64,000 bases of DNA from Candidatus Collierbacteria bacterium (GTDB lineage: Bacteria; Patescibacteriota; Microgenomatia; UBA1400; JACPES01). The stretch covers positions 1,789 through 65,788 of the forward strand of contig JACRNH010000024.1 of NCBI GenBank assembly GCA_016219325.1. Reading direction: 5' to 3'. Position numbers and translations under genes: made by a program. Shown here in pieces: positions 6,127-60,066 of this stretch (its first letter is position 1; the number at the start of each line of letters is the position of its first letter). The notes under the pieces were generated by a model. That model did no database searches. It was not told where the DNA came from and saw only the letters and a program-made list of their open reading frames with translations.

Positions 6127-9100
6127 AAACAATGGTTGATTTTCGCGGGTTAAAATTGGAATTGGCATCATCCGAAGTTATCCGGTCGTGGTCTCATGGA
6201 GAAGTAACTAAACCAGAAACAATTAATTACCGGACCTTAAAGCCGGAAAAAGACGGTTTGTTTTGCGAAAGGATATTCGGTCCTACCAGAGACTACGAAT
6301 GTTATTGCGGAAAATACAAGAGGATAAGATTCCGCGGAATCGTCTGCGATAAATGCGGCGTTGAAGTCACACAATCCAGAGTCAGGCGGGAAAGAATGGC
6401 TCATATCAATTTAGCGTCTCCGGTTGTTCATGTTTGGTACTTCAAAGGAGCTCCAAGTCAGCTTTCTCTTTTATTAAATATTTCTCCGAAGAGTCTTACC
6501 AGGGTTATTTATTTTGCCCAATATGTAGTTCTGGACGTTGATAAAAAAGTTGAAGAGCAGGTAATAAAAGATTTAAAAGAAGGTTTGAACAAAAAGCATA
6601 AAGAAATGGATGAAAAAGCCGAAAAAGAAATAGAAGAAGTCAAATCAGCCGGCGAAAAAGAAATTGCGGCTGAAATAAAGAATAATAACGGAGGAAAAGA
6701 ACAATTGGAACTGAAAACTAGAGAAACCCAATTTAGAGTAAAACAGGAAATTGCCAGAATTAGAGAATTGTTAGTTAAAGAGAAAGATACGGCTGCCGAA
6801 GTATTTAAAGCAGTCTTGAATTTGTCCTCCAGGCTGGAAAGAAGATCTTTGCTGACAGAAGACGAATATTTGAAATTGTTAGAATATAACGCTACCGATC
6901 ACTTAAAATTAGGGATGGGAGCAGAGGCTGTAGAAGAGCTTTTGTCGGATTTGAATTTAGTGGCAATCCGCGATCAGCTCCGTCAGGAATTGATTACGGC
7001 TACAGGCGCTGCTAAAACCAAAAAATCAAAACGATTAAGATTAATAGACGGACTAATTGAAGCTAAGATTGACCCCCGCTGGTCTTTGGTAAGAGTTTTA
7101 CCGGTTTTGCCGCCGGACTTGCGGCCAATGGTCCAATTATCCGGAGGCAGATTTGCTACTTCAGACCTTAACGATTTATACCGCCGCGTAATCAACAGGA
7201 ATAATCGTTTAAAGCATCTCATTGATCTGGGCGCTCCGGAAATTATTTTAAGAAATGAAAAAAGAATGCTTCAGGAAGCAGTTGATTCGCTAATTGATTC
7301 TCCGCAATCTCGGACTACCAGACGGCAAACTTTACGCCGCGAGTTGAAGTCCTTGTCAGAAATGTTGCGCGGAAAACAAGGCCGGTTTAGGCAAAATCTT
7401 TTAGGAAAAAGAGTTGATTATTCAGGCCGTTCCGTGATTGTGGTTGGTCCTGAATTAAAACTTAATCAATGCGGTTTGCCAAAAGATATGGCGCTAGAAA
7501 TGTTTAAGCCTTTCGTTTTAAGAGAATTAATTTCTCAAGGGATAAGTCCTAATGTCCGTTCGGCTAAGGCGGCTTTGGAAAGAAGGAGTCCGGAAGTTTA
7601 TGACATATTAGAAAAAATTACTAAAGATCATCCTGTTTTGCTTAACCGCGCTCCGACTTTGCATAAATTAGGAATTCAAGCCTTCTATCCGATTTTAATT
7701 GAAGGCAGCGCTATCAGAATTCACCCCTGTGTTTGTTCGGGCTATAACGCAGATTTTGACGGTGATCAAATGGCCGTTCATGTTCCCCTGTCGGTTCATG
7801 CTCAAGAAGAAGCCGCATCCATTATGATGCCGGAGCGTAATTTATTAAAGCCTTCCAGCGGGACCCCGATTACCGTTCCGAATAAGGAAATGGCGATGGG
7901 ATGTTATTATTTGACGTCTTATGACCCTGCTCTAAAATTAAGCAACACTGTTTTCTCCGGTAAAGAAGAAGTAATGACGGCTTTGCAAAATAACTTTATT
8001 GAGTATCGTCAGCCGATCATGGTCAGAATTGAAGGAAAAATTATTGAAACTACCGCCGGAAGGATTATTTTTAACCGCGCTTTGCCGGACAACGTGCCGT
8101 TTATGAACCGGGCGATTACCGCCGGAGCGATTCAGGATTTGGTCAGAGAAGCCATTGGCAAATTTAGTATTGAAGATACGGTTAAAATTATTGATTCCAT
8201 TAAAGAAGTCGGATTTAACGCCGCCACCATTTCCGGATTATCGGTTTCCGTAAGCGATTGTGTGATTATTCCCGGAAAAGATGATCTTATTAATGACGCT
8301 AATCAACGGGCTGTTCAAATTGAGCAGAATTTTGATACCGGATTGATTACTAATGAAGAACGCCGCAGGCTGACCAATCAGTTGTGGATGGAAACTACGG
8401 ATGATATTGCCGAAAAGACATGGAATTCGTTGGGTGAAAATAATGCGGTTAAAATTATCATTGATTCAGGCGGTACCAGGGCTAGCCGGGATCAGGTTAA
8501 ACAACTTTCGGCTATGAGAGGACTGGTGGTTGATCCGCTAGGCAACATCGTGGAACTGCCGACAAAATCCAATTTCAGACAGGGGTTGTCGGTGTTTGAA
8601 TATGTCACCAGTACCAGGGGATCCAGAAAGGGTTTAACAGATTCAGCTCTGAAGACTGCCGATGCCGGTTATTTGACCCGGAGATTGGTTGACGTTACCC
8701 ATGACGTAATTGTCAGAAGCGATGATTGCGGTACCGAGGGCGGCCTAACAATTTCCAAAACCAACCGCCGCGGGGACCAGTTTATTAAAAGAACTATAGG
8801 CCGGGTTTTAGCTGAAGATGTGCAGGACGGTAAAAAAATAATTGCCAAACGCGGTGATTTAATCGACGAACAAGTCCAGAAATTGTTATTGGGAGTTGGA
8901 GTGGAATCAATAGTTGTTAGGTCACCGTTGACCTGCGTTTTGCCTTACGGAATTTGCAAAATGTGTTACGGTTGGGATTTCGGACAAAGAAAACTGGCGG
9001 AGTTAGGTTTCCCGGCCGGAGTAGTTGCCGCCCAATCAATCGGAGAACCGGGAACTCAATTGACAATGCGGATTAAGCATACCGGAGGTATCGTCGGTTT

Positions 9101-16133: not shown

Positions 16134-17975
16134 ATGAAATTAACCGCAGATAGTATTATCAAAACCGCGATTAAAAAAACTCTTAACGATCTCGGATTTC
16201 CGGAAGTTCAAATATCTCTCGAGCACCCTGCCGTCGAATCCCACGGCGACTGGAGCTCAAATATCGCCCTAACTTTATTTCCTCTTACAAAATCCCCTAA
16301 ATTCCCTAATCTCCCTAATCTCCCTGATCTTTCCTCCCCCCGCCAAATAGCCGAAACCATCGTCGTCAGACTTTCTACTGATAAAGAACTTAAAAAGGTT
16401 GTTGCCAAAATCGACGTCGCCGGTCCGGGATTTATAAATTTTCATTTAACTCAAAATACACTCTTTGATGAATTAGAAAGAATTGATAAAAAGAAGAATA
16501 AATTTGGCAGCGGTGATTCGTTGAGCGGGAAAAAGATCATGGTAGAGTTTACCGACCCGAATCCGTTTAAGGAGTTTCACATTGGACATCTGTTTAGTAA
16601 TGTTGTTGGAGAAGCGCTGTCTCGATTACTTGCGTCGCAGGGCGCAATAGTAAAGCGAGCCAATTACCAAGGTGATGTAGGAATGCATGTTGCCAAGGCG
16701 GTTTGGGGGATGATACAAAAAATCAAAAATCAAAAATCAAAGATCAAAGAATTAGAAAAACTTCCGTTAAATGAGAAAGCTAAGTTTTTGGGAAAAGCTT
16801 ACGCGTTTGGGGCGACAAAATTCGAGGAAGACGAGAAAGTAAAAAAGGAAATAACTGAACTCAATAAGAAAATTTATGATAAATATCCAGAGGTAATGGA
16901 ACTATATAGCATAGGTCGGAAGTGGAGTCTGGATTATTTTGAAACCATTTACAAGCGGCTCGGGACGAAATTCGACTATTACTACTTTGAATCAGTTGCC
17001 GGGGAAGTGGGTTTGGAATTTGTCAGAGAAAATCTCAAGAAGGGAATTTTCCAAGAAAGCCAAGGGGCGATTGTTTTCCCCGGAGAAAAACATGGGCTGC
17101 ACACCCGTGTGTTTGTTAATTCCCTCGGTCTTCCGACCTATGAAGCTAAAGACTTAGGACTTGCCCCGACAAAATACAAAGATTTTAAATATGATGAATC
17201 GGTCATTGTGACCGGTAATGAAATTAATGAATATTTCAAAGTTCTGATTACGGCTCTAAAACAGATTAACCCGGGACTAGGCAAGAAAGCCCATCATATT
17301 TCTCATGGAATGGTGCGACTGCCGGAAGGCAAAATGAGCAGCAGAACAGGAAAAGTTTTGACGGGAGAATGGCTTCTTGACGAAGTGAAAAAAACAATAT
17401 TAAAACTGATGGCTAAAGCAGATTCTCCATTTTCTGTTTCAGACCGGGAAGAAATTGCGGAGAAAATTGCGGTTGGATCTATCAAATACGCGTTATTGAA
17501 GGCAGGAACCGGCCATGATGTCATTTTTGATTTCGAAAAATCTATTTCGGTCGACGGCAACTCCGGCCCTTACCTCCAATATACCTACGCTAGATGTCAA
17601 AGCGTTCTTGCGAAGGCAACTATTCCCGACACCGAACGCCTAAACCAACAACTAATAACTAATAACCAATTCAATCCAGAGGAATTGTCTATTCTCCGTT
17701 TCATCTATCGTTTCCCCGAAGTGGTCCAAACCGCCGCCACCCAATATTCGCCCAACTTAATCTGCACTTTTCTTTACGAACTGGCCCAGCGGTTTAATAC
17801 TTTCTACAATAAACATAGGATATTAGAAAGTAATGAGGAGAAAGTAATGAGTAATGAACAAAAAACAAAAAACAAAGAGCAAATTCAATTTAGGCTGTCA
17901 TTAACGTCAGCCGTTTCTCAAGTACTCAAAAACGGTCTAAACCTCCTTGGTATTCAAGCCCCGGAAAAGATGTGA
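16134..17975 (+). CDS. argS: Arginyl-tRNA synthetase
   Basis: The HIGH region (PNPFKEFHIGH), a KMSSR-like motif and a DALR-type C-terminal domain (QYTYARCQSV) are present. Two repeat-derived in-frame insertions (NLPNLPDLSSP; SNEEKVMSNEQKTKNKEQ) are also present. Confidence 0.9.
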   Translation: MKLTADSIIKTAIKKTLNDLGFPEVQISLEHPAVESHGDWSSNIALTLFPLTKSPKFPNLPNLPDLSSPRQIAETIVVRLSTDKELKKVVAKIDVAGPGFINFHLTQNTLFDELERIDKKKNKFGSGDSLSGKKIMVEFTDPNPFKEFHIGHLFSNVVGEALSRLLASQGAIVKRANYQGDVGMHVAKAVWGMIQKIKNQKSKIKELEKLPLNEKAKFLGKAYAFGATKFEEDEKVKKEITELNKKIYDKYPEVMELYSIGRKWSLDYFETIYKRLGTKFDYYYFESVAGEVGLEFVRENLKKGIFQESQGAIVFPGEKHGLHTRVFVNSLGLPTYEAKDLGLAPTKYKDFKYDESVIVTGNEINEYFKVLITALKQINPGLGKKAHHISHGMVRLPEGKMSSRTGKVLTGEWLLDEVKKTILKLMAKADSPFSVSDREEIAEKIAVGSIKYALLKAGTGHDVIFDFEKSISVDGNSGPYLQYTYARCQSVLAKATIPDTERLNQQLITNNQFNPEELSILRFIYRFPEVVQTAATQYSPNLICTFLYELAQRFNTFYNKHRILESNEEKVMSNEQKTKNKEQIQFRLSLTSAVSQVLKNGLNLLGIQAPEKM

Positions 17976-22999: not shown

Positions 23000-23821
23000 C
23001 TAATCTCTCTTACTTATTTTTATAAACCTTTTCCTTCCAAATTGATCTTTTATGATTTTTGCCCTGAAGTTTTTCGGAAGTTCCAAATCTTTAATTCTAT
23101 GTGTCTCGTCAATCTCCAAAAGTAAAACACCTTTAGATTTTAGCCTTGCCTGCGATTGAGCAATTAATTTATTGATCAATTTTAACCCATCCGGCCTGCC
23201 GTCGAGAGCTAAACGCGGTTCAAAATCTTTAACGGACTTCGGTAGTTTTGAAATTCTGGCAGAGGGAATATATGGAAGGTTGGCAATAATTAGATCAAAC
23301 CTTAAGTCTTTTGGGTAGCTATCAAACAAATCGCTTTCTAACCACACTAGCCACAAAAGGCCAGGCCTTTTTAAAAAGGCCTGGCCTTTTGTGGCTCTTA
23401 TGAGTCTTGAAATGTTTTCTTCCGCCACTTTCAACGCTTCTTCGGAAATATCAGACATATATATAGTAGGTTGAATTTCTAATTTAACTAATTCCAGATA
23501 TAGAGTAATCCCAATGCATCCGCATCCAGTTCCAAGGTCGGCGATGATTGGGGAGTAAGGAGTAGAAAGTAAAGAGCAAGAGCTAAGAATTTTTATGGCT
23601 TCGTCAATGAGCTGTTCGGTCTCAATCCGCGGGATTAAAACGTGTTTATTAACCTTAAAATCCCGACCGTAAAACTCCGCCCATCCGGTAATATATTCCA
23701 CCGGCATTTCACCATACTTTTTTAATTGTGAAGTTTGTCCTGCTAAGCAGGATCCTGCTCCGCAGGACGAAACTTTCCATTTCGCTAGCCAATTTATCTC
23801 CCTAGGGGAAAATTGCCTCAT
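23000..23821 (-). CDS. prmC: Release-factor glutamine N5-methyltransferase (HemK/PrmC)
   Basis: DLGTGCGCIGITL (motif I) and IIANLPY (the NPPY variant) are present. It carries a 15-aa in-frame insertion encoded by a perfect 44-nt palindrome. Confidence 0.85.
   Translation of the reverse strand: MRQFSPREINWLAKWKVSSCGAGSCLAGQTSQLKKYGEMPVEYITGWAEFYGRDFKVNKHVLIPRIETEQLIDEAIKILSSCSLLSTPYSPIIADLGTGCGCIGITLYLELVKLEIQPTIYMSDISEEALKVAEENISRLIRATKGQAFLKRPGLLWLVWLESDLFDSYPKDLRFDLIIANLPYIPSARISKLPKSVKDFEPRLALDGRPDGLKLINKLIAQSQARLKSKGVLLLEIDETHRIKDLELPKNFRAKIIKDQFGRKRFIKISKRD
23351..23394. repeat. Family-B palindromic element inserted in frame in prmC
   Basis: ccacaaaaggccaggcctttttaaaaaggcctggccttttgtgg (a perfect palindrome) encodes ..KGQAFLKRPGLLW... 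Confidence 0.85.
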
Positions 23822-26019: not shown

Positions 26020-26023
26020 TATC

Positions 26024-26103
26024 ATGTGAACATGGGAACATGAGAGCATTAATAAATTCATAAAAATGCTCCAATGTTCTAATGTTCCAATGCTCAAATG
26101 AAC
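26024..26103. repeat. Intercistronic imperfect palindrome (AATG-rich)
   Basis: gaacatgggaacatgagagcatt...aatgctccaatgttctaatgttccaatgctcaaatgaacatt lies between ugd and the next gene. Confidence 0.6.
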
Positions 26104-26982
26104 ATTCTAGTCACAGGCTCTTCCGGTTTTGCCGGCCGCCATTTAACCAAGTATCTTCAGGTCAAAGGCCATACTGCCTTGATTCCGGAAATTGATTTAT
26201 TAAATGCCACCGAAACGGAAGTAGTCATTTCAAAGCAAAAATTCGATGCGGTTGTCCATTTGGCGGCAATGGCTGAAGTCGGAACAAGCATGATTTCTCC
26301 GGCTAAAATTCTGCGGAATAATATTTTCGCCCAATTGAATTTATTGGAAGCCCTAAGACGGAGAAATTCTAAAGCTAGAGTTTTAATAATCTGTAGCGCC
26401 GACGAATATGGCGGAAGTCAGGAAGGGTCCATTGATGAAAATGCTCAGTTTATGCCGGCCAGTCCTTACGCTGTTTCCAAGATAGCCCAGGATTTTTTAG
26501 GTCTGCAATATTTTTTATCTTACGGATTAAACATTATCCGGTTAAGGCCGTTTAATCACATCGGCGAAGGTCAGCGGATTGGTTTCGTGGTCCCGGATTT
26601 TGTTAAGCAGATCGTGGAGATAGAGAAAAGCGGTCAATCAGGCGAAATAATAGTCGGCAATTTAGAGGCTGTCCGCGACTTTACCGATGTTCTTGATATG
26701 GTTTCGGCTTATGAATTGGCTTTGATAAAAGGCCAGGCAGGTGAAGTTTATAACGTTGGTTCCGGCAAGGGGGTTAAAATTTCTTATTTATTAAACCAGC
26801 TTGTCAAAATGTCTAAGGCTAAAATAAAAATTACGGTTGATGAATCAAGATTTCGTCCCGGGGAACCTTCGCAACTAATATGTAATTCGGAGAAATTTAT
26901 GAAAGCCACCGGCTGGAAACCTGAAATCCCTTTGGAAAAAACTTTAGAAAGAGTGCTAGAATGGTGGAGGAAGACTAGGTAA
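26098..26982 (+). CDS. NAD-dependent epimerase/dehydratase (SDR), likely GDP-4-keto-6-deoxy-D-mannose reductase (Rmd-like)
   Basis: VTGSSGFAGRHL is a Rossmann motif and YAVSK is the catalytic YxxxK. It sits adjacent to gmd. Confidence 0.55.
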   Translation: MNILVTGSSGFAGRHLTKYLQVKGHTALIPEIDLLNATETEVVISKQKFDAVVHLAAMAEVGTSMISPAKILRNNIFAQLNLLEALRRRNSKARVLIICSADEYGGSQEGSIDENAQFMPASPYAVSKIAQDFLGLQYFLSYGLNIIRLRPFNHIGEGQRIGFVVPDFVKQIVEIEKSGQSGEIIVGNLEAVRDFTDVLDMVSAYELALIKGQAGEVYNVGSGKGVKISYLLNQLVKMSKAKIKITVDESRFRPGEPSQLICNSEKFMKATGWKPEIPLEKTLERVLEWWRKTR

Positions 26983-27057
26983 GAAAATAATGAGTAAGAA
27001 GTAATGAGTAATGAATTTTTTGATCATTATTTCTTACTTTCTACTCATTACTCATTA
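26981..27057. repeat. Family-D 'GTAATGA' palindrome at a cistron junction
   Basis: aatgagtaagaagtaatgagtaatgaa ... tcattatttcttactttctactcattactcatta. It supplies the stop of the upstream gene and a spurious N-terminal extension of gmd. Confidence 0.8.
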
Positions 27058-28089
27058 ATGTCACGAAAAGCATTTATCACCGGCATTACCGGCCAGGACG
27101 GAAGTTATTTAGCGGAATTTCTTTTGGATAAGGGTTATGAAGTTTATGGCTTGATCCGCCGGACTTCAACGGTATCAACTGAACGAGTCTCTCATCTTTT
27201 GCATAAAATTTCAGTAGTCGACGGCGACTTAACCGATCAGCATTCGTTAACGCAGGCCATCCGCGACGTCCAGCCGGATGAAATTTATAATTTGGCGGCT
27301 CAATCTTTTGTTCCGACTTCGTTTAAGCAGCCGGTTTTAACCAGCGAAGCTACGGCTTTAGGGGTTACCAGAATGTTGGAGGCTATTCGCATCGCCAAGC
27401 CGGATACTAAATTTTATCAGGCGAGTTCTTCGGAAATGTTCGGTAAAGCGGTTGAAGTTCCGCAGTCGGAAACAACTCCATTTTATCCCCGTAGTCCTTA
27501 TGGTGTAGCCAAGGTCTACGGTCATTGGATCACGGTTAATTACCGGGAGTCATATAATCTTTTTGCCTGTTCAGGGATACTTTTTAATCATGAATCACCC
27601 CGCCGCGGTTTGACTTTTATTACCCGTAAAATCTCCATGAGCGTGGCTTGTCTGGCTACGGATTTGAAATGGGTGCCTCAAAATGAGATTGGCGAACCTT
27701 TAGTCGGACAGGATAAAAAAATCGCCATTGGCAATCTTGAATCTAAACGCGATTGGGGATTTGCCGGAGATTATGTTGAGGCGATGTGGTTGATGCTGCA
27801 GCAGTTAAAACCGGATGATTTTGTGATCGGAACAGGGGAAACCCATTCTGTCAGAGATTTTCTGGAGGCGGCTTTTGAGGTAGTTCAAATTAAAGATTGG
27901 GAAAAGCATATTAAAGTTGACAAGCGCTTTTACCGTCCGGCTGAAGTAGATCTATTGATTGCCGATCCTTCCAAGGCAAACCGGAAACTAAATTGGAAGC
28001 CAAAAACAAGTTTTAAGGATTTAGTAAAAATGATGGTGGAATATGATATAAAATTTGTGAAAAGGCAAATCGAAGGTAATCAAAAATGA
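27004..28089 (+). CDS. gmd: GDP-mannose 4,6-dehydratase
   Basis: [32 protein letters not shown] is near-canonical Gmd. The true start is probably the internal ATG at about 27058 (MSRKAF...). Confidence 0.9.
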
Positions 28090-32221: not shown

Positions 32222-33239
<1,018 letters not shown>

Positions 33240-33264
<25 letters not shown>

Positions 33265-34814
33265 TTTCCATCGCCGTACTTTTATCGCTGACCTTGCCGT
33301 CAATTATTTCCGGTAATTTTACTTTTGTTTTTGATATGGGCCGGGATCAACTCTGGACCAGAAATATGGTGGAACTGAAACGTCCGACCCTAATTGGACC
33401 GTGGGGATCAATCGCCGGAGTCTTTTTCGGCCCACTTTGGTTTTATCTTTTATCAATTCCTTATTTGATTTTTAACGGCGATCCCCGGGCAGCGGTTTTA
33501 CTTCCATTAGTGTCTAATTTGGCGGCAATGATTATCGGTTGGAAAATCCTGCGTAAATATAATCATCCTCTGGCGGCGGATTTTTTCGCGGTTCTATTTG
33601 GCGTTTCTCCCGCGATTGTTGGTTTATCGTCTTTTGCCTTCCACGCTAATTTGTTACCTTTAGCGACATTGTTATTTTTCATTGGTCTGTTTAACTTTCA
33701 CCAACAACCAACAACCAATAACCAACAACTTCTGACAGGCCTCCCCCTTTCCGCCCTCATGGCCAGTTTGTCATTCCATCTTGAGCCCGTCGCCGGAGTG
33801 ATGCTGACAGGATTCTTAACATTGTTTATTCTTGGACGGACCCACTTGCTTAAACTTCGCGTTTTAGTTCTTGCGTTTTTTCTGTTTTCCCTACCTTTCC
33901 TCCCTCAACTCATCTTTGAATTCCGTCACGACTTTATTCAAACAAAATCGTTAACTGCTTATTTTCAGGGGAAGAATCCCAGTTTAATGGGCGAACTGGC
34001 TTTAGACCAAAGAGTAACTGAAAGAATTACCAAATTAGCCGGAACCTTGGCTCATTCTCTTTTTCCGACGGAATTTACATCCGGAAAGTGGATAATATTC
34101 TCGGCATTTATCTTATTGACTGTCGTTTTTCTCAAGAATAAAACTAAGCCTAATGACGATTTTTCCCATTACTCATTACTGTTTACTCTTTACTTCTTAC
34201 TCTTTCATTATTTCGCCTACACCTTTTTATTTCCGGCCGAACTGAAAAATTGGTATTTGTCCGGTTTTATTCCGTTATATATTCTGTCAATGTCGCTGAT
34301 ACTTGAAAATATAAAATTAAAATCAAGGGCGCATGGAGCTTTAATAATTATTTTTACGGTGGTAATCGTTTCAATCAGCATTAACCCCGTCGATAGATTT
34401 TTTGAGATAAAGAAACCAATGCCTCCGGAAACTCTTGGCGCCCAAATGGAAGTAGTCGATTGGATTTATACAAATGCCGTTGCCAAATCCCAACCGTTTG
34501 CGGTCTATACTTATACCCCTCCGGTTTATGATTATCATTATGAATATCTTTTATGGTGGAGGGGAACGAGAAAATATAATTTATTACCGGCTGAATTTAG
34601 TTATCGTCCCGGAGAAACATCTTATTCTCAATATAAAACGGAATTTATGTCAAAACAGTGGAAACCGGAAGACGCCAAACTTATATATTTAATTATTGAG
34701 CCGGATAGTTTGGAAAAAAGATTAACCGGCTGGATGGGAAATTTTCCAAAAGCTACGCAATCGGAAACAAAAGAATTTCCTTCTAAAGTCAAAGTATTGT
34801 TTGGGTCTATATAA
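33240..34814 (+). CDS. Polytopic membrane protein, GT-C-like (paralog family 2)
   Basis: GNFTFVFDMGRDQLW...GPWGSIAGVFFGPLWFYL is shared with three other ORFs. Confidence 0.5.
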
Positions 34815-36303: not shown

Positions 36304-37583
36304 TAACAGCGCTTTTTTTTCTGTTAGCTGCGCTAATTAAGAATTTTACTCAAATTCCGGCCTCTCTTTTTGAGTCGGATCAGGAGACTTTGACAATTGC
36401 CGCCAAGAATATTCTAGGCGGACATTTTAGCCTGATTGGCGCTCCGACCAGCGTCGGGGGAATGTTTATCGCGCCTTTATATAATTATTTTGTCGCCATT
36501 TGGTTATGGATTTTCCGCGGCAGCCCTTATACGGTATCAATTTTAGGAGCAATATGGCTGTCGTTATTGATTCCGGCTATTTATCTGGTAGGAAAAAAAA
36601 TCTATTCTGGGTCAGTAGGAGTTTTCGCGGCGATTATTGCTCTATTGAGCATAAACTTTGTTAACTTTGATCAGGTTCCGCCATTATTATTTCCCCTGCC
36701 CCTGCTTACCGTAATTTTAATTTATGTTTTGGAAACTGAGCCGGCCACTAAATTCAGGAAAGCCATTATCGGCGCGGTCATAGGATTAACTTTAAATCTT
36801 CATTTTTCCGGAGTGTTTTTAGCCCCCTTACTGCTGATTTCCGGAATTTGGGGAAGTTTGGCATTGTTGATTTTGGTTTCGCCGTTAATTTTGTTTGATA
36901 TCCGCCATCAGTGGTGGAACATAGGTCACGCGGTGGAATTTTTAAGTAAAAGCGGAGCGGTAACTTCCCTGTGGTTTCGCCTGGATACTTTTCTGGTATC
37001 GTTCGCGGTTATTTTCGAAGCCGCAGCCGGAGCTGGAATGTTGGTAAAAACCGCGATGGGAGCTGTAATCGTTTGGGGATTTCTGTTCACAAGCCGCAAT
37101 TGGCCAAAAGTAATTTTGGGATTAACGTTTATCTTTTTCATGATTTATGGCGGGAGTCTTATTCCTTATTATGGAATCATTTCCTGGGTGCCGTTTATTT
37201 TGATTGCCGGATGCGGTTTGGAGAGACTGTGGGCGAAAGGGAATTTTATTAAATCAATAATTGTTTTGACGGGAGTGTTTTTCTTAATAATGAATTTTAA
37301 GGCCTTAAGTAACCGTTCGGCGAGTAGGGGGTTGGACAAAAAAATTGCCGCCCTGGAGTTTATTAAAAATGATTTTATAGGCCGGGAAATGTATCTTTCA
37401 ATAAATATGGATCCGGCGGCAAACTTCGGATTTACATATTTAACCGGATATGTTGGGATTAAATCCACTCCGTTTCCGGTTAAGCCTACTTATACTTTGC
37501 TTGCTCCTTACGATTGGTTGAAAGTTAATCCTGATAAGTCGTTTGGGGATTTCGGGGTGTTGATGTCTAGAAGTAATGAGTAA
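36300..37583 (+). CDS. Polytopic membrane protein, GT-C-like (paralog family 2)
   Basis: LIGAPTSVGGMFIAPLYNYFVAIWLW. Confidence 0.5.
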   Translation: MITALFFLLAALIKNFTQIPASLFESDQETLTIAAKNILGGHFSLIGAPTSVGGMFIAPLYNYFVAIWLWIFRGSPYTVSILGAIWLSLLIPAIYLVGKKIYSGSVGVFAAIIALLSINFVNFDQVPPLLFPLPLLTVILIYVLETEPATKFRKAIIGAVIGLTLNLHFSGVFLAPLLLISGIWGSLALLILVSPLILFDIRHQWWNIGHAVEFLSKSGAVTSLWFRLDTFLVSFAVIFEAAAGAGMLVKTAMGAVIVWGFLFTSRNWPKVILGLTFIFFMIYGGSLIPYYGIISWVPFILIAGCGLERLWAKGNFIKSIIVLTGVFFLIMNFKALSNRSASRGLDKKIAALEFIKNDFIGREMYLSINMDPAANFGFTYLTGYVGIKSTPFPVKPTYTLLAPYDWLKVNPDKSFGDFGVLMSRSNE

Positions 37584-37651
37584 TGAGTAGAAAGTAATGA
37601 GTAATGAATCGTAGGGTTCATTATTTATTACTTTCTATTTTCTACTCATTG
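37570..37651. repeat. Family-D 'GTAATGA' palindrome at a cistron junction
   Basis: agaagtaatgagtaatgagtagaaagtaatgagtaatgaa...ttcattatttattactttctattttctactcatt. Confidence 0.8.
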
Positions 37652-39118
37652 TTTATGAAATCGGATAAAACAATGAACTTTCTGACTATAGCTTTTATAA
37701 CCTTTATATCCTTTATCCTGTTTTTTTTCCGGTTGGGGAACACGGCATTAACCAATTGGGACGAGGCCTGGTTTGGCTCGGTAGCCCAGAATATGGCGGA
37801 ATCCGGAAACATTTTGGCCGGCAAGTGGAATGGGCAAATCTTTTTTTATGAACCGCCGCTTTTGGTTTGGTTGTTGAAGGCAACGATTAAACTTTTCGGC
37901 GAAAGCGAATTTTGGTTGAGGTCTGTTAGCGCCATTTCCGGGGTTTTTACAGTCATAGGATGTTATATTCTGGCCAAACAAATCTCTAAGTCAAAACTGG
38001 CGGGGATATTAGCAAGTTTAGTAATTTTGTCTGACATAGAAATTCTATTTCGGAGCCGGCAAATTAATGTTGAAATTCTTCTGACTGTTTTACTGCTGTG
38101 GTCAATTATATTCGCGGTTAAAGCCTATGAAGCAAAAAAAATCATCTGGATAATATCGTCAGCAATTTGTTTGGGTCTGGCATTTTTAACTAAACGGGCA
38201 AGTCCGTTATTAGCTCTTCCGGCAATAGGCTATTTATTCTTTTCGTCATTGACCCGTGAAGCGGGATCCCGCTCTGCGGGACGAGTCCCTTTGTTTATAT
38301 TCTTTATAACATTTACAATAGTTATTTCTCCTTGGTATTTATTAAGTTATTTAAAATGGGGAGACCAATTTATCAATGAATTTTTTATCGGATACACATT
38401 TAATAAAATTAAATCAGTCAATGCCAGTGTCGGAACTTCGCCATTTTTCTATTTAAATTCCCTTAAACACGCTTTTAAACTCTGGACTTTGTTAATTCCG
38501 CTGGCAGCAGTTTGGGGTACGTTAAAAGCTTTTCGTGACCGTAAGATTGCCGGATTGATGATTTTTATTTTAACCTTTCTGATACTCTTGACCGCCGCCC
38601 CGATAAAATCTTCCTGGTTCTTGCTCCCCATCCATCCGATAATTGCCGTAATCTTGGGAATATTCTTGTACAGCTGTCTGAAAAGGCCCGGCCTTGCATC
38701 GCAAGGCCGGGCCTTATTAAACAAATATCTCGTTTTTGCGGGATTATCTTTAATATTCGTTATCGCAACTTATCAACTTTATCACTATCGTCGCGACTAT
38801 ATTGTTCCTGACACTACAAATAATCAGGCCGTGATTTCGAGATTGGCAGGGTCGCTTTCAGAAAACGGAAAGTCAATTTATCTGGATGATGAGTATCTGC
38901 CGGTCGCGGTTTTTTATAGCCGTAAGAACGTTATTCCGTTAAGGTTTAGCCGGACCGAAAATCGGATTCCTAGTTTGGTTGATATCCCCGAAGGAAGTCT
39001 TGTATTGACTAATCTTGGAACATATCCGGTTTTAAAATCAGCTACGGGAATTATTTTTGAGGATATGTTCGCTGTCGGAGACATGTTGTTGGTCAGGTCT
39101 TTGGGCATAAGAATTTAA
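37604..39118 (+). CDS. ArnT-family (GT83-like) glycosyltransferase
   Basis: The 'NWDEAWFGSVAQNM' DE motif is present. The true start is probably an internal ATG (37655 or 37673). It carries family-B and family-C insertions. Confidence 0.6.
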   Translation: MNRRVHYLLLSIFYSLFMKSDKTMNFLTIAFITFISFILFFFRLGNTALTNWDEAWFGSVAQNMAESGNILAGKWNGQIFFYEPPLLVWLLKATIKLFGESEFWLRSVSAISGVFTVIGCYILAKQISKSKLAGILASLVILSDIEILFRSRQINVEILLTVLLLWSIIFAVKAYEAKKIIWIISSAICLGLAFLTKRASPLLALPAIGYLFFSSLTREAGSRSAGRVPLFIFFITFTIVISPWYLLSYLKWGDQFINEFFIGYTFNKIKSVNASVGTSPFFYLNSLKHAFKLWTLLIPLAAVWGTLKAFRDRKIAGLMIFILTFLILLTAAPIKSSWFLLPIHPIIAVILGIFLYSCLKRPGLASQGRALLNKYLVFAGLSLIFVIATYQLYHYRRDYIVPDTTNNQAVISRLAGSLSENGKSIYLDDEYLPVAVFYSRKNVIPLRFSRTENRIPSLVDIPEGSLVLTNLGTYPVLKSATGIIFEDMFAVGDMLLVRSLGIRI

Positions 39119-40282
39119 AATCATAAATAAGACGGCAGTAGTTAAAAAATGGCTGGATAGAAGCGGATTAAGACGTAACGGGAGATAAGAGTCTTTGAAA
39201 TAAAAGATAAGCAGAAAATAAGCCAATCCGGAAATTGCCAAATCCAGCATTTTTTTAGTTTTAATCAATTTTGCGACTAGAATTACCCAAAGAGGAATTA
39301 GAAAGACGTAATGGTGTTGCCACACAAACACCGGTAAAAATAACATTGTTATTACAGTTAAATTCCAAAAAGAGATAAAATCTTTTATTCCTTTTGTCAC
39401 TCCTGTCATTCCGGGCTTGACCCGGAATCTATACAAATAATCATTTAAAAAGAAGACCCCCAGGATCCCGCTAATCCCCAATCTTGTTATCGAATTCAAT
39501 TCCCCAAAAATTCCGAATTTCCCCAATAAGGCCGTAACCGATTGATTCATATAGCTTCCATTGAGAGTGGTACGAGTATTTTCGTTCATTAATTGCGGAA
39601 TGGTTTTAAAATAATAATAATAGGTTAAATCCCAACCGAATACGGAAATTCCGGCTATGGTTAATATTCCAATCGTAACCATAAACCACCAAACTGTTCT
39701 CCATCTTTTTCTAAATAAGAAATAAATTAGCAATGGGGCTGGCGTTAATTTTAAAATAGCCGCTAGCCCAAATAATATCCCTGATAAAGCCTCAAAAGGC
39801 CGGACCTTGCTTCGCAAAGTCCGGCCTTTATAAATTTCACAAAAATAATAACTTCCCACGATCAATCCTAAAATAATTAAATTAATTTGTCCCAGCGCCA
39901 GAGTTAATTTAGATGGGTAAGTCTTTAGAGCTAAAACAAAAATTAACCAAAAAATGGATGGGGATAATTTAATTTTTAACAATTCAAAAATCATTTTTAT
40001 GGTGAGCAGTAAGGAAAAAGCCGAAATTGCGGTAAATAAAAATTCGGCCGTATTTTCGGGAATTAAAGTCAACGGAATAAAAAATAGGGTAGCTGCGGGA
40101 GAATAATTGAATCGATCAAAAAACCTTAATTGATACGGGTTAGCCCCACTGAGAGCCGATTTAGTTCCGTCTAAATAAACACTAAAGTCGTTGAGACGGA
40201 AGTTCATGATTAATTGCCCAATGGGAATTACTTGTCTCCAAAGAATTATTGCTACAATCAAGAGTATTAATTTATTAACCAT
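39038..40282 (-). CDS. Polytopic membrane protein (GT-C-like)
   Basis: Multi-TM protein. The start was chosen at the ATG whose codon overlaps the divergent YfhO start (shared CATG at 40280-40283). It contains a family-B insertion. Confidence 0.45.
   Translation of the reverse strand: MVNKLILLIVAIILWRQVIPIGQLIMNFRLNDFSVYLDGTKSALSGANPYQLRFFDRFNYSPAATLFFIPLTLIPENTAEFLFTAISAFSLLLTIKMIFELLKIKLSPSIFWLIFVLALKTYPSKLTLALGQINLIILGLIVGSYYFCEIYKGRTLRSKVRPFEALSGILFGLAAILKLTPAPLLIYFLFRKRWRTVWWFMVTIGILTIAGISVFGWDLTYYYYFKTIPQLMNENTRTTLNGSYMNQSVTALLGKFGIFGELNSITRLGISGILGVFFLNDYLYRFRVKPGMTGVTKGIKDFISFWNLTVITMLFLPVFVWQHHYVFLIPLWVILVAKLIKTKKMLDLAISGLAYFLLIFYFKDSYLPLRLNPLLSSHFLTTAVLFMILNSYAQRPDQQHVSDSEHILKNNSRS
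39404..39439. repeat. Family-A hairpin repeat (inside the minus-strand membrane-protein gene region)
   Basis: tgtcattccGGGCTTGACCCggaatctatacaaata. Confidence 0.75.
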
Positions 40283-42488: not shown

Positions 42489-43183
42489 AAATTTCAATTA
42501 TTATTCCGGTATTTAACGAAGAAAAAACAATCGCCAAAATCATCAGACAGATTAATAATGTAATCGGATTCCGGAAAGAAATTATAGTTGTTGATGATGC
42601 TTCGGTTGATGGAACATCTGGAGTTATAAAAGATATCCTTCGACTTCGCTCAGGACAAGTAAAGGATATAACTGTTATTAAACATAAAATTAATCAGGGC
42701 AAGGGCGCTGCGATTAGAACCGGAATTGCTAAAGCTACCGGCGATTATGTTTTGGTTCAGGATGCTGATTTGGAATACGATCCGCAGGATATTTTATCAA
42801 TGATCAAACCTATTAGCCAGGGGAAAGCGGAGGTCGTCTACGGTTCGCGGTTTACAGGACCGAGACGGAATATGTTTTTTTGGCATTGGATGGGAAATCA
42901 ATTATTGACACTTATAACCAATATTCTTTACAACACAACACTTTCAGATATGGAAACTTGTTATAAATTAATTCCCTTAAGATTAATTAAGTCTTTAAAT
43001 TTGAAAGCTCAAAGGTTTGAATTTGAACCTGAAGTAACCGCTAAAATTTTAAAAAGAAATATCAGAATTTGGGAAGTTCCGATTTCTTACGCCGGACGCG
43101 AATATCATGAGGGCAAAAAAATTACCTGGAAAGACGGGATACCGGCCCTGTGGACATTGATAAAGGAACGGATAACTCCGTAA
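42485..43183 (+). CDS. Polyprenol-phosphate glycosyltransferase (GT2, DPM1-like)
   Basis: ISIIIPVFNEEKTI...VVDDASVDGT. Confidence 0.8.
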   Translation: MKISIIIPVFNEEKTIAKIIRQINNVIGFRKEIIVVDDASVDGTSGVIKDILRLRSGQVKDITVIKHKINQGKGAAIRTGIAKATGDYVLVQDADLEYDPQDILSMIKPISQGKAEVVYGSRFTGPRRNMFFWHWMGNQLLTLITNILYNTTLSDMETCYKLIPLRLIKSLNLKAQRFEFEPEVTAKILKRNIRIWEVPISYAGREYHEGKKITWKDGIPALWTLIKERITP

Positions 43184-43275
43184 TGAGTAAGAAGTAAGGA
43201 GTAATGAGTAATGAAAAGCACAAAAATAAATATCCAATCATTATTTTCTACTCATTATTTCTTACTCATTATTTT
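43180..43275. repeat. Family-D 'GTAATGA' palindrome at a cistron junction
   Basis: gtaatgagtaagaagtaaggagtaatgagtaatgaa...tcattattttctactcattatttcttactcattatt. Confidence 0.8.
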
Positions 43276-44623
43276 TTCTTTTCCCCTCCTCTTCAACCTC
43301 TTCCGTCCCGGCTTCTATTCTTCCGACGACGGCCAATGGATGGCAATCAGATTAACCGCCTTCCATGAGTCTTTCCGTTCAGGTCAAATTCCGGTCAGAT
43401 GGATGTCCAGATTGAATCATGAGTACGGTTATCCGGTGACAAACTTTTTATACCCATTGCCATTTTACTTGGCGGAACCTTTTTACGTTTTATCCGGAGA
43501 TCCGGTATTGGCTATTAAAATCATTATGGGCTTGTCTGTGATCAGCATGGCTTTTGGATCATTTGTCTTATTTAAAAGATGGGGAACGATTGCCGGAGCC
43601 GCCGGAGCTTTAGCTTATGTTTATTCTCCGTATATCGCTTACAATCTTTATACCCGCGGTTCATTGGGAGAATTGGCGGCCTTAGGAATTGTGCCGTGGA
43701 TCTTTTGGGCGCTTTCCCATAACCGATTTCTTTTATCGTCTATTTTTATCGCTGGTTTGATTACTGCTCATAATGTAGTCGCCGCGGTCTTTTTGCCCCT
43801 TATAGTCTTTTATAATATTTATAACAATTATCCTGCGAAGCAGGACCCTGCTCTGCGGGGTAAAAATTATAAAATACAAGCGGTATCTTCATTAATTTTG
43901 GCCTTAGTTTTAAGTTCCTTCTTCTGGCTTCCTGCTCTCTATGAATACCGTTTTGTCAGAGCTTCTCAAATTTCAGTCTCAGATTTCGGCAACGAATATC
44001 TCTCTTTGCAAAAAGCATTTCAGCGGACTGGTCCGGTTTCAGTTTTAGCCAATTTTGGATTACCGTTATTTTTTCTAACGGAGAATTCCAAATGGTTTTG
44101 GGACTTATTTAAGCCTTTGCAGATAATCCAATTCCCGTGGCGGTTTTTAAGCCTATTCGCCTTTTCCTCTTCAACGGTCGTAGCATTATTGATTTATGTA
44201 TCAAGAAAAAATAGGTTTACGCAGTATAGCTTTATAACCTTTATAATCTTTATTTCTGCTTCCTCTTTTTTATCCCCCAAGTCTTTTATCGATCTCCCTC
44301 CAAGTTACTATCAAACCAACGATGATAGCACCACAGTCAGAAGCGAATACACTCCGGTTTGGGTAAAAAATTTACCCCTTAACCGTTCTGAATTTCCGGT
44401 TAAACATTTTTATCCGGGATTAAAGCTGTTTGTTAATGGGATTGAACAACCGGCAAATTTAAATTCAGATAACGGAGAATTAAAGCCTTTAGATTCAAGA
44501 GATAATAACAGGATTAAATTTATTTGGAGTGAAGCGCCCTTGAGAGTGATAGCGGATCTGATATCGGTTACAGGACTACTTACTGTCCTGTTTTTGTTTA
44601 AGCGACAACAGTATAAATATTAA
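43211..44623 (+). CDS. Polytopic membrane protein, 'FPVRW' paralog family (copy 1)
   Basis: GQIPVRWMSRLNHEYGYPVTNFLYPL. It carries a family-C insertion (AKQDPALRGK). Confidence 0.55.
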   Translation: MKSTKINIQSLFSTHYFLLIIFSFPLLFNLFRPGFYSSDDGQWMAIRLTAFHESFRSGQIPVRWMSRLNHEYGYPVTNFLYPLPFYLAEPFYVLSGDPVLAIKIIMGLSVISMAFGSFVLFKRWGTIAGAAGALAYVYSPYIAYNLYTRGSLGELAALGIVPWIFWALSHNRFLLSSIFIAGLITAHNVVAAVFLPLIVFYNIYNNYPAKQDPALRGKNYKIQAVSSLILALVLSSFFWLPALYEYRFVRASQISVSDFGNEYLSLQKAFQRTGPVSVLANFGLPLFFLTENSKWFWDLFKPLQIIQFPWRFLSLFAFSSSTVVALLIYVSRKNRFTQYSFITFIIFISASSFLSPKSFIDLPPSYYQTNDDSTTVRSEYTPVWVKNLPLNRSEFPVKHFYPGLKLFVNGIEQPANLNSDNGELKPLDSRDNNRIKFIWSEAPLRVIADLISVTGLLTVLFLFKRQQYKY

Positions 44624-46264: not shown

Positions 46265-47792
46265 TCTTTTATTGAGTATACCAGCGGTTTGGCCGATAGT
46301 CGCCCCCGGATTTTTTCCGGTTCATGATGACGCGCAGGCCGCCAGGGTTCAGCAAATGTATGTGGCTTTACGGGGCGGGCAGTTTCCGGTCAGATGGGTG
46401 CCTGATTTGGGATACGGGTATGGATATCCGATTTTTAATTTCTATAATCCCCTGCCATATTATTTCGGAGCCGGTTTTATGTTTATTGGATTTAATGTTT
46501 TAACGGCTACGAAGTTAATGTATGTTTTTCCGGTTTTTTTATCCGGGATAACAATGTTTATTTTTTCAAGACTTGTATTGTCTAACGCTGCTTCCGCCTT
46601 GGCCGGGATTCTTTATGTCTATGCTCCATATCACGCGGTCCAAATTTATGTCAGGGGATCGGTAGCCGAGTATTGGGCTTACGCCATACTGCCTTTGGTT
46701 TTTTATGCTCTTTGGAAAAGAAAAATTATTATCGGTTCTTTGTCATTGGCGGCTTTGATTCTATCTCACAATTTAACCGCGTTTATGTCAATCCCTTTTG
46801 TAGTATTGTTATTCTTCATCTCTTTTCGTCATTGCGAGGAGCGTAGCGACGCGGCAATCTCAAAATCAAAGACGGAATTGCCATATTCTCTTTTGATATT
46901 TGTAGTGACTATTGCGTTAGGGATTGGTCTTAGTGTTTTTTTCTGGCTGCCGGCAACCATAGAAATTGGTAAAACTCAAGTATCGCAAATGGTATTTGAA
47001 AAATTTGACCCGCCTTCAAAACATGTGGCTTATCCGCTGCAGCTCTGGTCTGGCGTTTGGGGCTATGGCGGATCTTCGCCGGGCATTGACGATGGATTAT
47101 CTTTTCAAGTTGGGAAAATCCACTTAATTGGTAGTTTGACCGCATTTTTAATATATCTAGGATATATTCTTAAAAAGATAACCAATCATTCCAGTCTTTT
47201 TAGCCTTTCTAACCTTTTTAACCATTTTAACCATTTAATCTTCTTTTCCATCGTCGGCCTCGTCTTTTCTATTTTCATGCTACTGCCGCCGTCCCGACCA
47301 ATTTGGGATGCGTTTCCGGTTCTTTCTTATATCCAATTTCCGTGGCGTTTCCTGACATTCGCCTCTCTATTTAGTTCTTTATTAACAGCTTGGGCTATAG
47401 ATGCGTTCGCAATTCGCAATTCGCGACCCGTAATCCGTTATTCACTACTTACTGCTTACTGCTTACTGCTTACTGCTTACTCCCTCCCTTTTTTCCAGCC
47501 CAAATTTAAATTTCCCATTACGGTTGATCAGCTAATCTCCCGCGAAAAATTAATCTGGGATTATTCTAAAATTTCCGACGAGTATTTGCCGAAAGGCTTT
47601 GCTCCGCCTGTAAACGCCGAAGTCGCTTTAAGAATTGACAATCAGCAAAATAAATTGTTGGTTGACGAGCTAAAAGCGCTAACGCCTGTTAGGCAAACGG
47701 CAAATTTAATAAGTTTATTTTCAGTTTTAACTTTTATAACCTTTATAATTGTCATTTCAATAAAAAAACATGGACAAAATATTTCAGGTTAA
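46230..47792 (+). CDS. Polytopic membrane protein, 'FPVRW' paralog family (copy 3)
   Basis: GQFPVRWVPDLGYGYGYPIFNFYNPL. It contains an in-frame family-A insertion (SFRHCEERSDAAISKSK) and a CTTACTG heptamer array. Confidence 0.55.
   Translation: MAKRLILFILFILLLSIPAVWPIVAPGFFPVHDDAQAARVQQMYVALRGGQFPVRWVPDLGYGYGYPIFNFYNPLPYYFGAGFMFIGFNVLTATKLMYVFPVFLSGITMFIFSRLVLSNAASALAGILYVYAPYHAVQIYVRGSVAEYWAYAILPLVFYALWKRKIIIGSLSLAALILSHNLTAFMSIPFVVLLFFISFRHCEERSDAAISKSKTELPYSLLIFVVTIALGIGLSVFFWLPATIEIGKTQVSQMVFEKFDPPSKHVAYPLQLWSGVWGYGGSSPGIDDGLSFQVGKIHLIGSLTAFLIYLGYILKKITNHSSLFSLSNLFNHFNHLIFFSIVGLVFSIFMLLPPSRPIWDAFPVLSYIQFPWRFLTFASLFSSLLTAWAIDAFAIRNSRPVIRYSLLTAYCLLLTAYSLPFFQPKFKFPITVDQLISREKLIWDYSKISDEYLPKGFAPPVNAEVALRIDNQQNKLLVDELKALTPVRQTANLISLFSVLTFITFIIVISIKKHGQNISG
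46827..46860. repeat. Family-A variant inserted in frame inside a CDS
   Basis: cgtcattgcgaggagcgtagcgacgcggcaatct. Confidence 0.75.
47444..47482. repeat. Heptanucleotide tandem array (CTTACTG)x5 inside a CDS
   Basis: cttactgcttactgcttactgcttactgcttactc encodes LLTAYCLLLTAY. A (GCAATTC) x2-3 array also lies at 47405-47425. Confidence 0.8.
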
Positions 47793-59284: not shown

Positions 59285-60052
59285 ATGAAATTATCCGCAA
59301 TTGTAATCACTAAAAATGCTGCCGACAAAATCGAGGATTGTCTTGAATCTTTAAAATTCGCGGATGAAGTGATTGTGGTGGATTCAGGATCGACGGATGC
59401 AACAAAAGATATTGCGGTGAAAGCAGGAGCTAAATTTTTTAAAGTCGATAATATTGGTTACTCCCACAGCCGGAATGTCGGAGCCCAAAAAGCCAAAGGC
59501 GAATGGTTGCTTTATGTTGACGCGGACGAAAGAGTGACTGAAAATCTCCAAAAAGAAATCCTCCCTAATCTCCCCAAATCCCCTAATTTCCAAAGTTTCA
59601 AAATCTACCGCAAAAATATCATTCTCGGTCAATGGCTCCGCCACGGCGGCTGGTGGCCTGATCCGGTCCACAGGTTAATAAAAAAATCTGCTCTTAGAGA
59701 ATGGCAAGGCGAGTTGCACGAATATCCGGTGGTTGAGGGCGAAGCCGGGACTATAACTGAACCAATAGTCCATTATTCAAAGAATTCAATTTCAGAAATG
59801 GTTAAGAATTCCCGCCAATTTGCGCCGATTGAGGCTGAATTGAAATTGAAAGCCGGACATCCGCCGGTAAAAATTTATCATTTTATTTTAGCTATGTGGG
59901 GCGAATTTTGGACAAGAGGGATTTTAAAAGCAGGTTGGTTGGACGGAGTGGTCGGCATAATCGAAATTTTTTACCAAATGTTCCATCAATTTATGGTCTA
60001 TTCGATCCTTTGGCAAATGCAGCAGACAAAAAGAGTAAAGAGTAATGAGTAA
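59285..60052 (+). CDS. Family-2 glycosyltransferase (LPS-core-type)
   Basis: LSAIVITKNAADKI...VVDSGSTDAT. Start at the internal ATG after the repeat. The ORF-track start is 59207. It carries the family-E 'LPNLPKSPNF' insertion. Confidence 0.75.
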   Translation: MKLSAIVITKNAADKIEDCLESLKFADEVIVVDSGSTDATKDIAVKAGAKFFKVDNIGYSHSRNVGAQKAKGEWLLYVDADERVTENLQKEILPNLPKSPNFQSFKIYRKNIILGQWLRHGGWWPDPVHRLIKKSALREWQGELHEYPVVEGEAGTITEPIVHYSKNSISEMVKNSRQFAPIEAELKLKAGHPPVKIYHFILAMWGEFWTRGILKAGWLDGVVGIIEIFYQMFHQFMVYSILWQMQQTKRVKSNE

Positions 60053-60066
60053 AGAGTAATGAACCA
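60031..60066. repeat. Family-D 'AGTAATGAGTAA' element (half-site) at a cistron junction
   Basis: aagagtaaagagtaatgagtaaagagtaatgaacc supplies ...KRVKSNE* to the upstream gene. Confidence 0.7.

Follow-up and report, generated by a model that had tools for sequence, protein, structure and literature searches.

The stretch of DNA analysed here (64,000 nt of contig JACRNH010000024.1 of a Candidatus Collierbacteria bacterium, hereafter the window) belongs to the candidate phyla radiation (CPR) and carries three imperfect palindromes, family-D elements 1 to 3, at gene junctions in a cluster that encodes GDP-sugar enzymes and membrane glycosyltransferases of the GT-C, GT2, GT39 and YfhO types. We explain them as heptanucleotide simple-sequence-repeat palindromes of the short tandemly repeated repetitive (STRR) or long simple sequence repeat (LSSR) type, located like repetitive extragenic palindromic (REP) sequences, made by slippage and inverted duplication and kept by a coding filter, and we give this explanation a probability of roughly 0.55. 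Most junctions in the cluster are 4-nt overlaps or gaps of a few nt, and elements 1, 2 and 3 open stop-to-start gaps of 75, 71 and 27 nt, respectively. The three elements are:

Element 1, 26983-27062, + strand: palindrome at the junction of an Rmd-like GDP-sugar reductase gene and gmd, arms 26983-27016 and 27029-27062.
Element 2, 37572-37650, + strand: palindrome at the junction of a GT-C (PMT_2-like) gene and a GT39/ArnT-like gene, arms 37575-37608 and 37617-37650.
Element 3, 43180-43273, + strand: palindrome at the junction of a GT2 gene and a PTPS-related GT-C gene, arms 43181-43214 and 43238-43271, 23-nt loop.

The elements share one plan, in which a run of AGTAATG-like heptamers is followed by a short loop and the inverted run, and AGTAAGA, AGTAGAA, AATAATG and AGTAAGG occur as variant units. 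The left arm of element 1 (26983-27016), for example, reads AATAATG AGTAAGA AGTAATG AGTAATG A and its right arm is the same array inverted. An inverted-repeat finder gave 74-82% Watson-Crick complementarity between the arms, and Tandem Repeats Finder (TRF) assigned period 7 and 3.9-5.1 copies to the arms and to further arrays at 34167, 60030 and 62927. RNA folding energies are -23.5 (element 1), -42.8 (element 2) and -33.6 kcal/mol (element 3), and the corresponding z-scores, relative to dinucleotide shuffles, are -4.8, -10.3 and -8.6 (0/200 shuffles as stable); each stem is a long, nearly perfect duplex (27-34 bp) and element 2 forms the most stable hairpin. With one mismatch or fewer, the 12-mer AGTAATGAGTAA has 20 matches in the 64 kb against 0.28 expected, a number reached in 0/100 shuffles; the AGTAATG family is enriched in this genome, as the other CPR loci, with 780 kb in total, have about 17 such matches. 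The repeat finders, folding and 12-mer enrichment bear out the first-pass annotation of this DNA, made from its letters, which had placed palindromes of about 80 nt at these junctions. An assembly artefact was rejected, as the same sequences are present in independent Logan assemblies and at orthologous loci. No Rfam family was found for the elements at gathering or permissive thresholds, and in the window only two tRNAs reach threshold; the sub-threshold matches of the elements are plant miRNA-precursor hairpins with 26-32 bits against a threshold of 96.

The upstream stop codon directly adjoins the left arm of element 1 (TAA 26980-26982) and lies within that of element 2 (TAA 37581-37583) and element 3 (TAA 43181-43183). 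In all four junction cases, the fourth being the half array listed below, it lies in or at the first repeat unit. The annotated ending of the upstream open reading frame (ORF) as ...SNE* applies only to the ORFs ending at 37583 and 60052, whereas the genes before elements 1 and 3 end in ...KTR* and ...ITP*. Stops do occur in all three frames as annotated, but this is automatic for any tandem 7-nt unit containing TAA or TGA, because 7 and 3 are coprime and all three frames read one 21-nt cycle. The reverse unit CATTACT is stop-free in every frame and reads H-Y-S-L-L-I-T. A coding filter could work on these properties: the sense purine-rich arm would close all frames within seven codons, at the cost of losing or altering few C-terminal residues of the upstream protein, and the pyrimidine-rich arm, with its hydrophobic heptapeptide, would be harmless before a start codon or become a new N-terminal membrane segment. 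Survival at tight junctions would be possible because one arm closes all frames and the other has no stops.

Homologue N-termini and the NCBI annotation place the gmd start at ATG 27058-27060, at the 3' end of the element 1 right arm; gmd homologues start with MSKKAFITG, MPKAFITG or MKKAFITG and the window protein with MSRKAFITG. By the same evidence the GT39 gene starts at ATG 37655, 4 nt past the element 2 right arm, where the window protein (MKSDKTMNF...) aligns with the start of its orthologue in locus L126 (MKRIFSSDF...). With gmd counted from 27058 and the GT39 gene from 37655, elements 1 and 2 are intercistronic and wholly upstream of the true starts. Shine-Dalgarno-like motifs precede only about 10 of the 38 window genes, and with motifs this rare, nothing can be concluded from finding none in front of gmd and the GT39 gene. 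Gene calls on the Logan assemblies run through the stop-free arm and give ORFs 27004-28089 (361 aa) and 37604-39118 (504 aa), for which NCBI uses shorter forms of 343 and 487 aa. The elements are hence a systematic annotation hazard, as programs that choose the longest ORF falsely extend proteins at the N-terminus, through the stop-free arm (two of three genes here in the Logan calls).

The situation is different at element 3. The gene that follows it is ORF 43211-44623 (product 100% identical to that of locus tag HZB78_05240 of a Candidatus Collierbacteria genome), and ATG 43211, which belongs to the final left-arm heptamer, is the sole in-frame ATG, GTG or TTG upstream of the conserved GT-C core, which begins at P25 (PLLFNLFRPGFY). 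The left arm contains, besides the upstream stop, an AAGGAG motif (43195-43200) and this downstream ATG (43211-43213). All homologues have a basic N-terminus and then a hydrophobic helix before the core; in the window the loop of element 3 encodes KSTKINIQ and the right arm encodes membrane-anchor residues that make up half of the N-terminal membrane helix. Judged by these alignments, element 3 demonstrably supplies the start codon and part of the N-terminal membrane anchor of the downstream gene, a concrete case of simple repeats becoming coding sequence. The first-pass annotation had described the elements as intercistronic, the N-terminal extensions as spurious, and a downstream gene starting inside an element as the observation that would speak against it; such a start is found at element 3 and not at elements 1 and 2, and the extensions are spurious at elements 1 and 2 but real at element 3.

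Synteny is kept in other Collierbacteria, in which tight ATGA-type overlaps are found where the window has structured spacers of 71-78 nt (27 nt from stop to start for element 3). Between relatives, elements were gained and lost, and ATGA overlaps or 2-8 nt spacers occur at orthologous junctions. At junction 1 there is a 3-nt spacer in L217, an ATGA overlap in L215 and a 110-nt palindrome of AAACTAAC/GTTAGTTT units in L216. At junction 2, L126 has an ATGA overlap and L127 a non-repetitive spacer of about 100 nt. Junction 3 has a 2-8 nt spacer and no palindrome in L122/L126, L124/L138, L127/L139 and L135/L137, an AGTAATG palindrome in L121 and L120, a palindrome of AACAATG/CATTGCT units in L140 and one of AAACTAAC units in L142/L143. 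The left arm of L120 is exactly one 14-nt (double) unit shorter than that of element 3, and L194 has kept the left arm and lost about 27 nt of loop and right arm, that is most of the right arm. Replacement units in the palindromes of relatives at orthologous junctions are AAACTAAC, AACAATG and GAACATGG, and every junction palindrome compared runs from the stop codon, where its A/G-rich arm starts, to the ATG, where its T-rich arm ends. By these alignments the same junctions have repeatedly gained, lost or swapped palindromes of different units, and as ATGA overlaps, short spacers and palindromes of other units all occur at the same junctions in relatives, turnover is high. The window therewith gives natural with/without pairs for studying effects on operon expression.

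The N-terminal anchor of the GT-C protein after junction 3 is encoded by different tandem arrays in different Collierbacteria: an (AACAAAA)n basic part followed by (GCTCTTT)n, period-8 ATTCGCTT/ATTGGGTT units, or a CATTACT-type arm (window 43211-43290; L122 3001-3060; L124 3001-3070; L127 10001-10065; L135 about 1470-1550). From this comparison, simple repeats seem to rebuild one membrane segment time after time.

We propose that slippage in 7- or 14-nt steps, together with inverted duplication or conversion of one arm by the other, creates and remodels the palindromes in DNA. After transcription they would form a 27-34 bp hairpin between cistrons, with a probable influence on the stability of the mRNA and on how efficiently initiation proceeds downstream. 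Element 2 folds better as the + strand (-42.5 vs -24.4 kcal/mol for the - strand), element 1 equally well on both, and the - strand folds better for the orthologous or similar elements of L121 and L140 and for the palindrome at 26022. Strand-specific selection on RNA through G-U asymmetry was rejected on this ground: there is no consistent preference for the transcribed strand, so selection on RNA structure cannot be claimed, and the lack of a strand preference fits a DNA-level palindrome.

Single arrays, a palindrome of another period and copies within genes are also present in the window:

60030-60062, + strand: forward half array (AAAGAGT/AGTAATG units) at the GT2/RhuM junction.
17825-17876, + strand: forward array (AGAAAGTAATGAGG twice and AGTAATG, 17825-17857) followed by (AACAAAA)x3, in frame in argS.
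34167-34212, + strand: reverse array CATTACT CATTACT GTTTACT CTTTACT TCTTACT within ORF 33240-34814.
62927-62960, + strand: reverse array (TCATTAC units) within the YfhO-like ORF 61487-63520, encoding SLLIIFYSLLS.
62063-62100, + strand: related purine-rich array (AGTAAAA/AGAGCAAAAAGTAA) within the YfhO-like ORF 61487-63520, encoding RVKSKEQRVKSNE.
26022-26101, + strand: period-8 palindrome (GAACATGG... / ...CCAATGTTC) at the junction of a UDP-glucose dehydrogenase gene and the Rmd-like gene.

The half array at 60030-60062 ends the upstream ORF as ...RVKSNE* (TAA 60050-60052) and has no inverted arm. It is followed by a RhuM-family gene and a small ORF (60074-61494), and this region may be an inserted cassette that split the half array from its former partner arm. 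At the start of the window, 37-2034 contains an ORF with a Type ISP restriction-enzyme C-terminal specificity domain and an Eco57I-type methylase. RNA folding found no fold for the single arrays 60030-60062, 17825-17857, 34167-34212 and 62927-62960. The argS array encodes ...SNEEKVMSNEQKTKNKEQ... and is, in agreement with the copy annotated there, a 12-residue in-frame insertion relative to the solved ArgS chains 2zue and 4oby. The copy annotated within the YfhO-like gene is an array too, but of related, different units (AGTAAAA/AGAGCAA). While the four junction copies were listed correctly, the reverse copies in ORFs (34167-34212 and 62927-62960) and the period-8 palindrome had been omitted. 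That palindrome fills a 78-nt gap, ends at ATG 26098 and has the architecture of elements 1 to 3 with a different unit; it folds slightly better on the - strand. At its junction, L217 has an ATGA overlap and L215 and L216 have AAACTAAC-type palindromes. The array at 34167-34212 encodes the membrane helix SHYSLLFTLYFLLFHYF, and the orthologous helix is encoded by (TGTTTAC)4 in L126 and (TTTACTC)5 in L127. Reverse arrays are located in membrane-helix coding sequence, and forward arrays occur within ORFs only where they are mutated to avoid stops.

The density of period-7 arrays with at least 3 copies is 9.4 per 100 kb for the window, compared with 4.0 per 100 kb for other CPR loci (780 kb), and arrays of periods 5, 6 and 9 do not exceed 0.4 per 100 kb. 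Tandem arrays of 7 and 8 nt are by far the commonest short repeats in this lineage. Arrays of period 6 or 9 are nearly absent although the DNA is coding. Further perfect or near-perfect heptamer arrays are found on the sense strand within glycosyltransferase ORFs (32242-32275, 32420-32455, 33700-33729, 47444-47481, 49079-49112, 57488-57520 and 62246-62282), with the mostly pyrimidine-rich units CTCTTTA, TACTTTC, ACCAACA, ACTGCTT, ATTTACT, TGTTTCC and TTACTAT. The pyrimidine-rich ones would read as hydrophobic peptides, and the aligned case at 34167-34212 is a membrane helix. A second palindrome family with the core AAGGCCNGGCCTT has all five of its copies inside ORFs (23349-23396, 32945-32979, 38675-38723, 39795-39829 and 55966-56000), some of them perfect (23349: 24+24 nt, loop-free).

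Outside the window, genome loci were scanned with the pattern AGTAATGAGTAATGA-N(2-32)-TCATTA, for which we estimate about 8 matches by chance. Among the matches listed, the AGTAATG palindrome pattern is present in over 119 genome loci and also in 6 viral contigs. Hosts include many Nostoc, Calothrix, Anabaena, Symploca and Richelia, Anaerolineae, Caldilineaceae and other Chloroflexota, as well as Acidobacteriota, Bacteroidota, Chisholmbacteria, Uhrbacteria and Gracilibacteria, and the cross-phylum matches are extended heptamer palindromes. Of 77 matches that could be placed, 2 are inside an ORF, 43 between co-directional, 19 between convergent and 13 between divergent genes; convergent sites make up 25% of the classified junctions and divergent ones (13/75) are not depleted. 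AGTAATG palindromes are general intergenic palindromes and not operon-specific devices. In one group of Nostoc loci (L015, L027, L035, L051, L077, L078, L094-L096, L107 and L108) the loop GTGGATGAAAAATGGGTATTT and the flanks ...CACGCAATGCTTTAAAGTAATG... and ...ACTCCAGAATCACCG... are conserved; from its sequence this subfamily looks like a true miniature inverted-repeat transposable element (MITE) that contains heptamer arms.

A palindrome is the same on both strands, so that elements with AGTAATG and those with CATTACT as the first arm are two distinct classes. The ratio of AGTAATG-first to CATTACT-first is 3:0 in the window, 6:1 in viral contigs and 8:1 among the matches that did not trigger retrieval of their locus. 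In a set of 31 period-7 palindromes with many different units, taken from the retrieved loci (L001-L134) and the window elements, the 5' arm is purine-rich in 26, pyrimidine-rich in 2 and unskewed in 3 (about 1.5e-6 by our own one-sided binomial estimate). The 5' arm has more G than C in 28 and the reverse in 3, with a mean C content of 7.5%. Non-periodic palindromes in the same loci are, unlike the period-7 palindromes, split 6:4, and the asymmetry in stop codons is weaker (19:7). Such a simple polarity rule lends itself to checking in all genomes.

Several observations weigh against our explanation. Firstly, slippage does not predict the 5'-purine polarity (26 vs 2, and G>C in 28 vs 3). Secondly, the 27-nt block TAATGAGTAAGAAGTAATGAGTAATGA of the element 1 left arm is identical in Chisholmbacteria locus L114, and elements 1 to 3 share the variant units AGTAAGA, AGTAGAA and AATAATG; both fit block copying between sites. 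The L114 palindrome itself (6365-6460, Candidatus Chisholmbacteria) lies between co-directional genes and has a degenerate T-rich right arm as in element 1. Thirdly, no other 30-nt stretch nearby is as well conserved as the non-coding left arm of element 3, which has 90% identity to L121 and 97% to L194, where flanking coding DNA has 57-87% and the downstream proteins are 53-58% identical. On these identities, its conservation indicates selection, constraint or homogenisation and not drift. Lastly, inverted duplication is a step that we infer.

An alternative is that the elements are translational-coupling cassettes, in which the hairpin would hide the downstream initiation region until the stem is melted by a ribosome that terminates at the 5'-arm stop codon, so that the downstream glycosyltransferase is tied to the upstream gene. 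A role in translational coupling, already suggested in the first-pass annotation, is plausible and fits the geometry: elements 1 to 3 all have the stop at or in the 5' arm and the start 0-4 nt past the 3' arm or within the stem, and the ATGA overlaps that they replace are themselves coupling devices. At element 3 the unpaired probability of the start codon rises from 0.00 in the free mRNA to 0.39 once a ribosome is modelled on the stop codon, an AAGGAG precedes the start by 10 nt, and the left arm is unusually conserved. Constrained folding, however, gave little support to a simple ribosome-unmasking model, as the shifts in accessibility of the initiation regions are small (0.38->0.52, 0.33->0.44 and 0.26->0.14). 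Moreover, elements 1 and 2 are absent in close relatives whose neighbouring proteins are 87-90% identical, and in other phyla identical palindromes are also found where the neighbouring genes converge or diverge, so coupling cannot be their general role. We therefore regard the cassette as an unlikely explanation of the elements.

Alternatively, the hairpins could punctuate the mRNA, as partial bidirectional intrinsic terminators or attenuators, as barriers to 3'-exonucleases or as RNase III sites, and so set transcript levels of the segments. REP hairpins stabilise upstream mRNA in E. coli, and the near-perfect stems of 27-34 bp would suit such a function, as would the order of an A/G-rich arm first and a T/C-rich arm last across phyla, which is the geometry of a bidirectional terminator, and the 25% of classified contexts that are convergent. 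A terminator scanner listed element 2 and a T-run (TTTTTTCTTTT) follows element 3, while element 1 has neither. The stems are AU-rich, though, with 3-8 G-C pairs (3 in element 2), a U-tract is absent after elements 1 and 2, divergent junctions are not depleted, and termination or cleavage within element 3, which is partly coding, would inactivate the gene. This explanation is more doubtful than coupling. Equally tentative is a wider version of it, in which heptamer palindromes form a cross-phylum class with a fixed polarity, that is a purine-rich, C-poor 5' arm on either strand. Such palindromes could act as two-way, ribosome-proof transcript punctuation, with stops facing ribosomes from either side and a U/C-rich 3' arm, and also provide raw material for de novo start codons and N-terminal anchors, as with ATG 43211; polarity and left-arm conservation would then come from function and not from mutation.

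It is improbable that the elements are non-autonomous mobile elements of MITE or REP-like type, moved in trans by an enzyme encoded elsewhere with a preference for stop/start junctions. Their presence varies between relatives, the window copies share the order of variant units and L114 shares the 27-nt block, and the Nostoc subfamily with conserved flanks and loop is MITE-like. On the other hand, only the repeat arms align among the window copies, whose loops share neither sequence nor length (9, 8-10 and 23 nt). No target-site duplication was seen when filled and empty sites of junctions 1, 2 and 3 were read side by side, and none of the 20 window ORFs scanned with Pfam encodes a transposase, RAYT or Nop-domain protein that would be a candidate enzyme. 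The palindromes of unrelated units at the same junctions in relatives suit local generation better than insertion. The portability named in the first-pass annotation, if taken to mean a discrete mobile element, is not supported by these results. Least probable is an array of binding sites for a DNA- or RNA-binding protein that recognises heptamers. In its favour, unit and left arm are conserved beyond the needs of pairing and the L194 left arm is unchanged without its partner, but relatives use unrelated units at the same junctions and we know of no candidate protein. The idea of a heptamer-binding protein has been raised for other heptamers of cyanobacteria and Beggiatoa (PMC4679880; bioRxiv 10.1101/2022.06.06.494920).

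Among known systems, TIGR arrays, found in phages and CPR, consist of units of about 36 nt with two spacers and box C/D motifs beside a Nop-domain gene (PMC12045711). A TIGR-Tas array was rejected, as TRF found no array of about 36 nt in the window, the elements are single period-7 hairpins without spacers, and no Nop domain was present in the scanned ORFs. REP/BIME, Correia, RUP and ERIC sequences are, like the elements, dispersed imperfect palindromes of intercistronic or 3' regions that fold in mRNA. REP hairpins protect the mRNA upstream of them, and a gene can be expressed less when a REP lies close to its stop codon. These families have conserved non-repetitive sequence (and REPs a RAYT transposase), whereas the window arms are simple tandem repeats, and with unrelated loops no conserved internal sequence of the MITE or REP kind was found among the window copies. 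Rickettsia palindromic elements (RPE) are palindromic repeats that end up in frame in genes and become protein, as happens here with the argS insertion and the element 3 right arm. RPEs differ, however, in having 100-150 bp, a family consensus and no 7-nt periodicity; in the window a hydrophobic heptad-like peptide comes from a stop-free arm.

A closer likeness is to the TAACTGA heptamer repeats of marine Beggiatoaceae, cyanobacteria and Bacteroidetes (MacGregor, 2015, PMC4679880). These share a 7-nt unit with TAA and TGA, short intergenic sites directly before start codons, occasional reverse copies in ORFs and a patchy spread across phyla (PMC4679880). MacGregor (2015) argued likewise for TAACTGA that stops in all frames prevent the forward orientation from overlapping coding sequence, and a translational role has been proposed for it, not proven (PMC4679880). 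In contrast to the window elements, which are defined by inverted pairing and one of which gives a start codon and coding sequence, TAACTGA repeats are direct repeats without predicted structure, with one indirect repeat in the genome studied (PMC4679880).

With STRR and LSSR sequences the elements share tandem 7-nt units, dispersed and mostly intergenic positions and copy numbers that change in steps of 7, and many genomes of Nostoc, Calothrix, Anabaena and Symploca carry the identical AGTAATG palindrome. Records of heptanucleotide repeats in cyanobacteria go back to 1990, and such repeats have been noted in other phyla too; the classical STRR units CCCCAGT, TTGGTCA and CAACAGT are unlike AGTAATG in sequence. 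We found no report in the literature of AGTAATG or its circular permutations as a named repeat unit, and nothing relevant on repeat palindromes in CPR. The excess of heptamers over other periods, which PMC4679880 attributes to Mrazek et al. (2007), is seen in the window too. The elements have the features of the class, namely tandem 7-nt units of at least 3 copies, dispersal far above chance and copy changes by whole units between relatives, while under the strict STRR definition they differ in the host, which is a Candidatus Collierbacteria and not a heterocystous cyanobacterium, and in the unit. Here the host is a small-genome CPR bacterium and the arrays are paired as inverted hairpin arms exactly at operon junctions, with filled and empty orthologous sites that can be compared. 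Family D is a variant of the known heptamer-repeat class, and its inverted arms at operon junctions in a CPR genome distinguish it.

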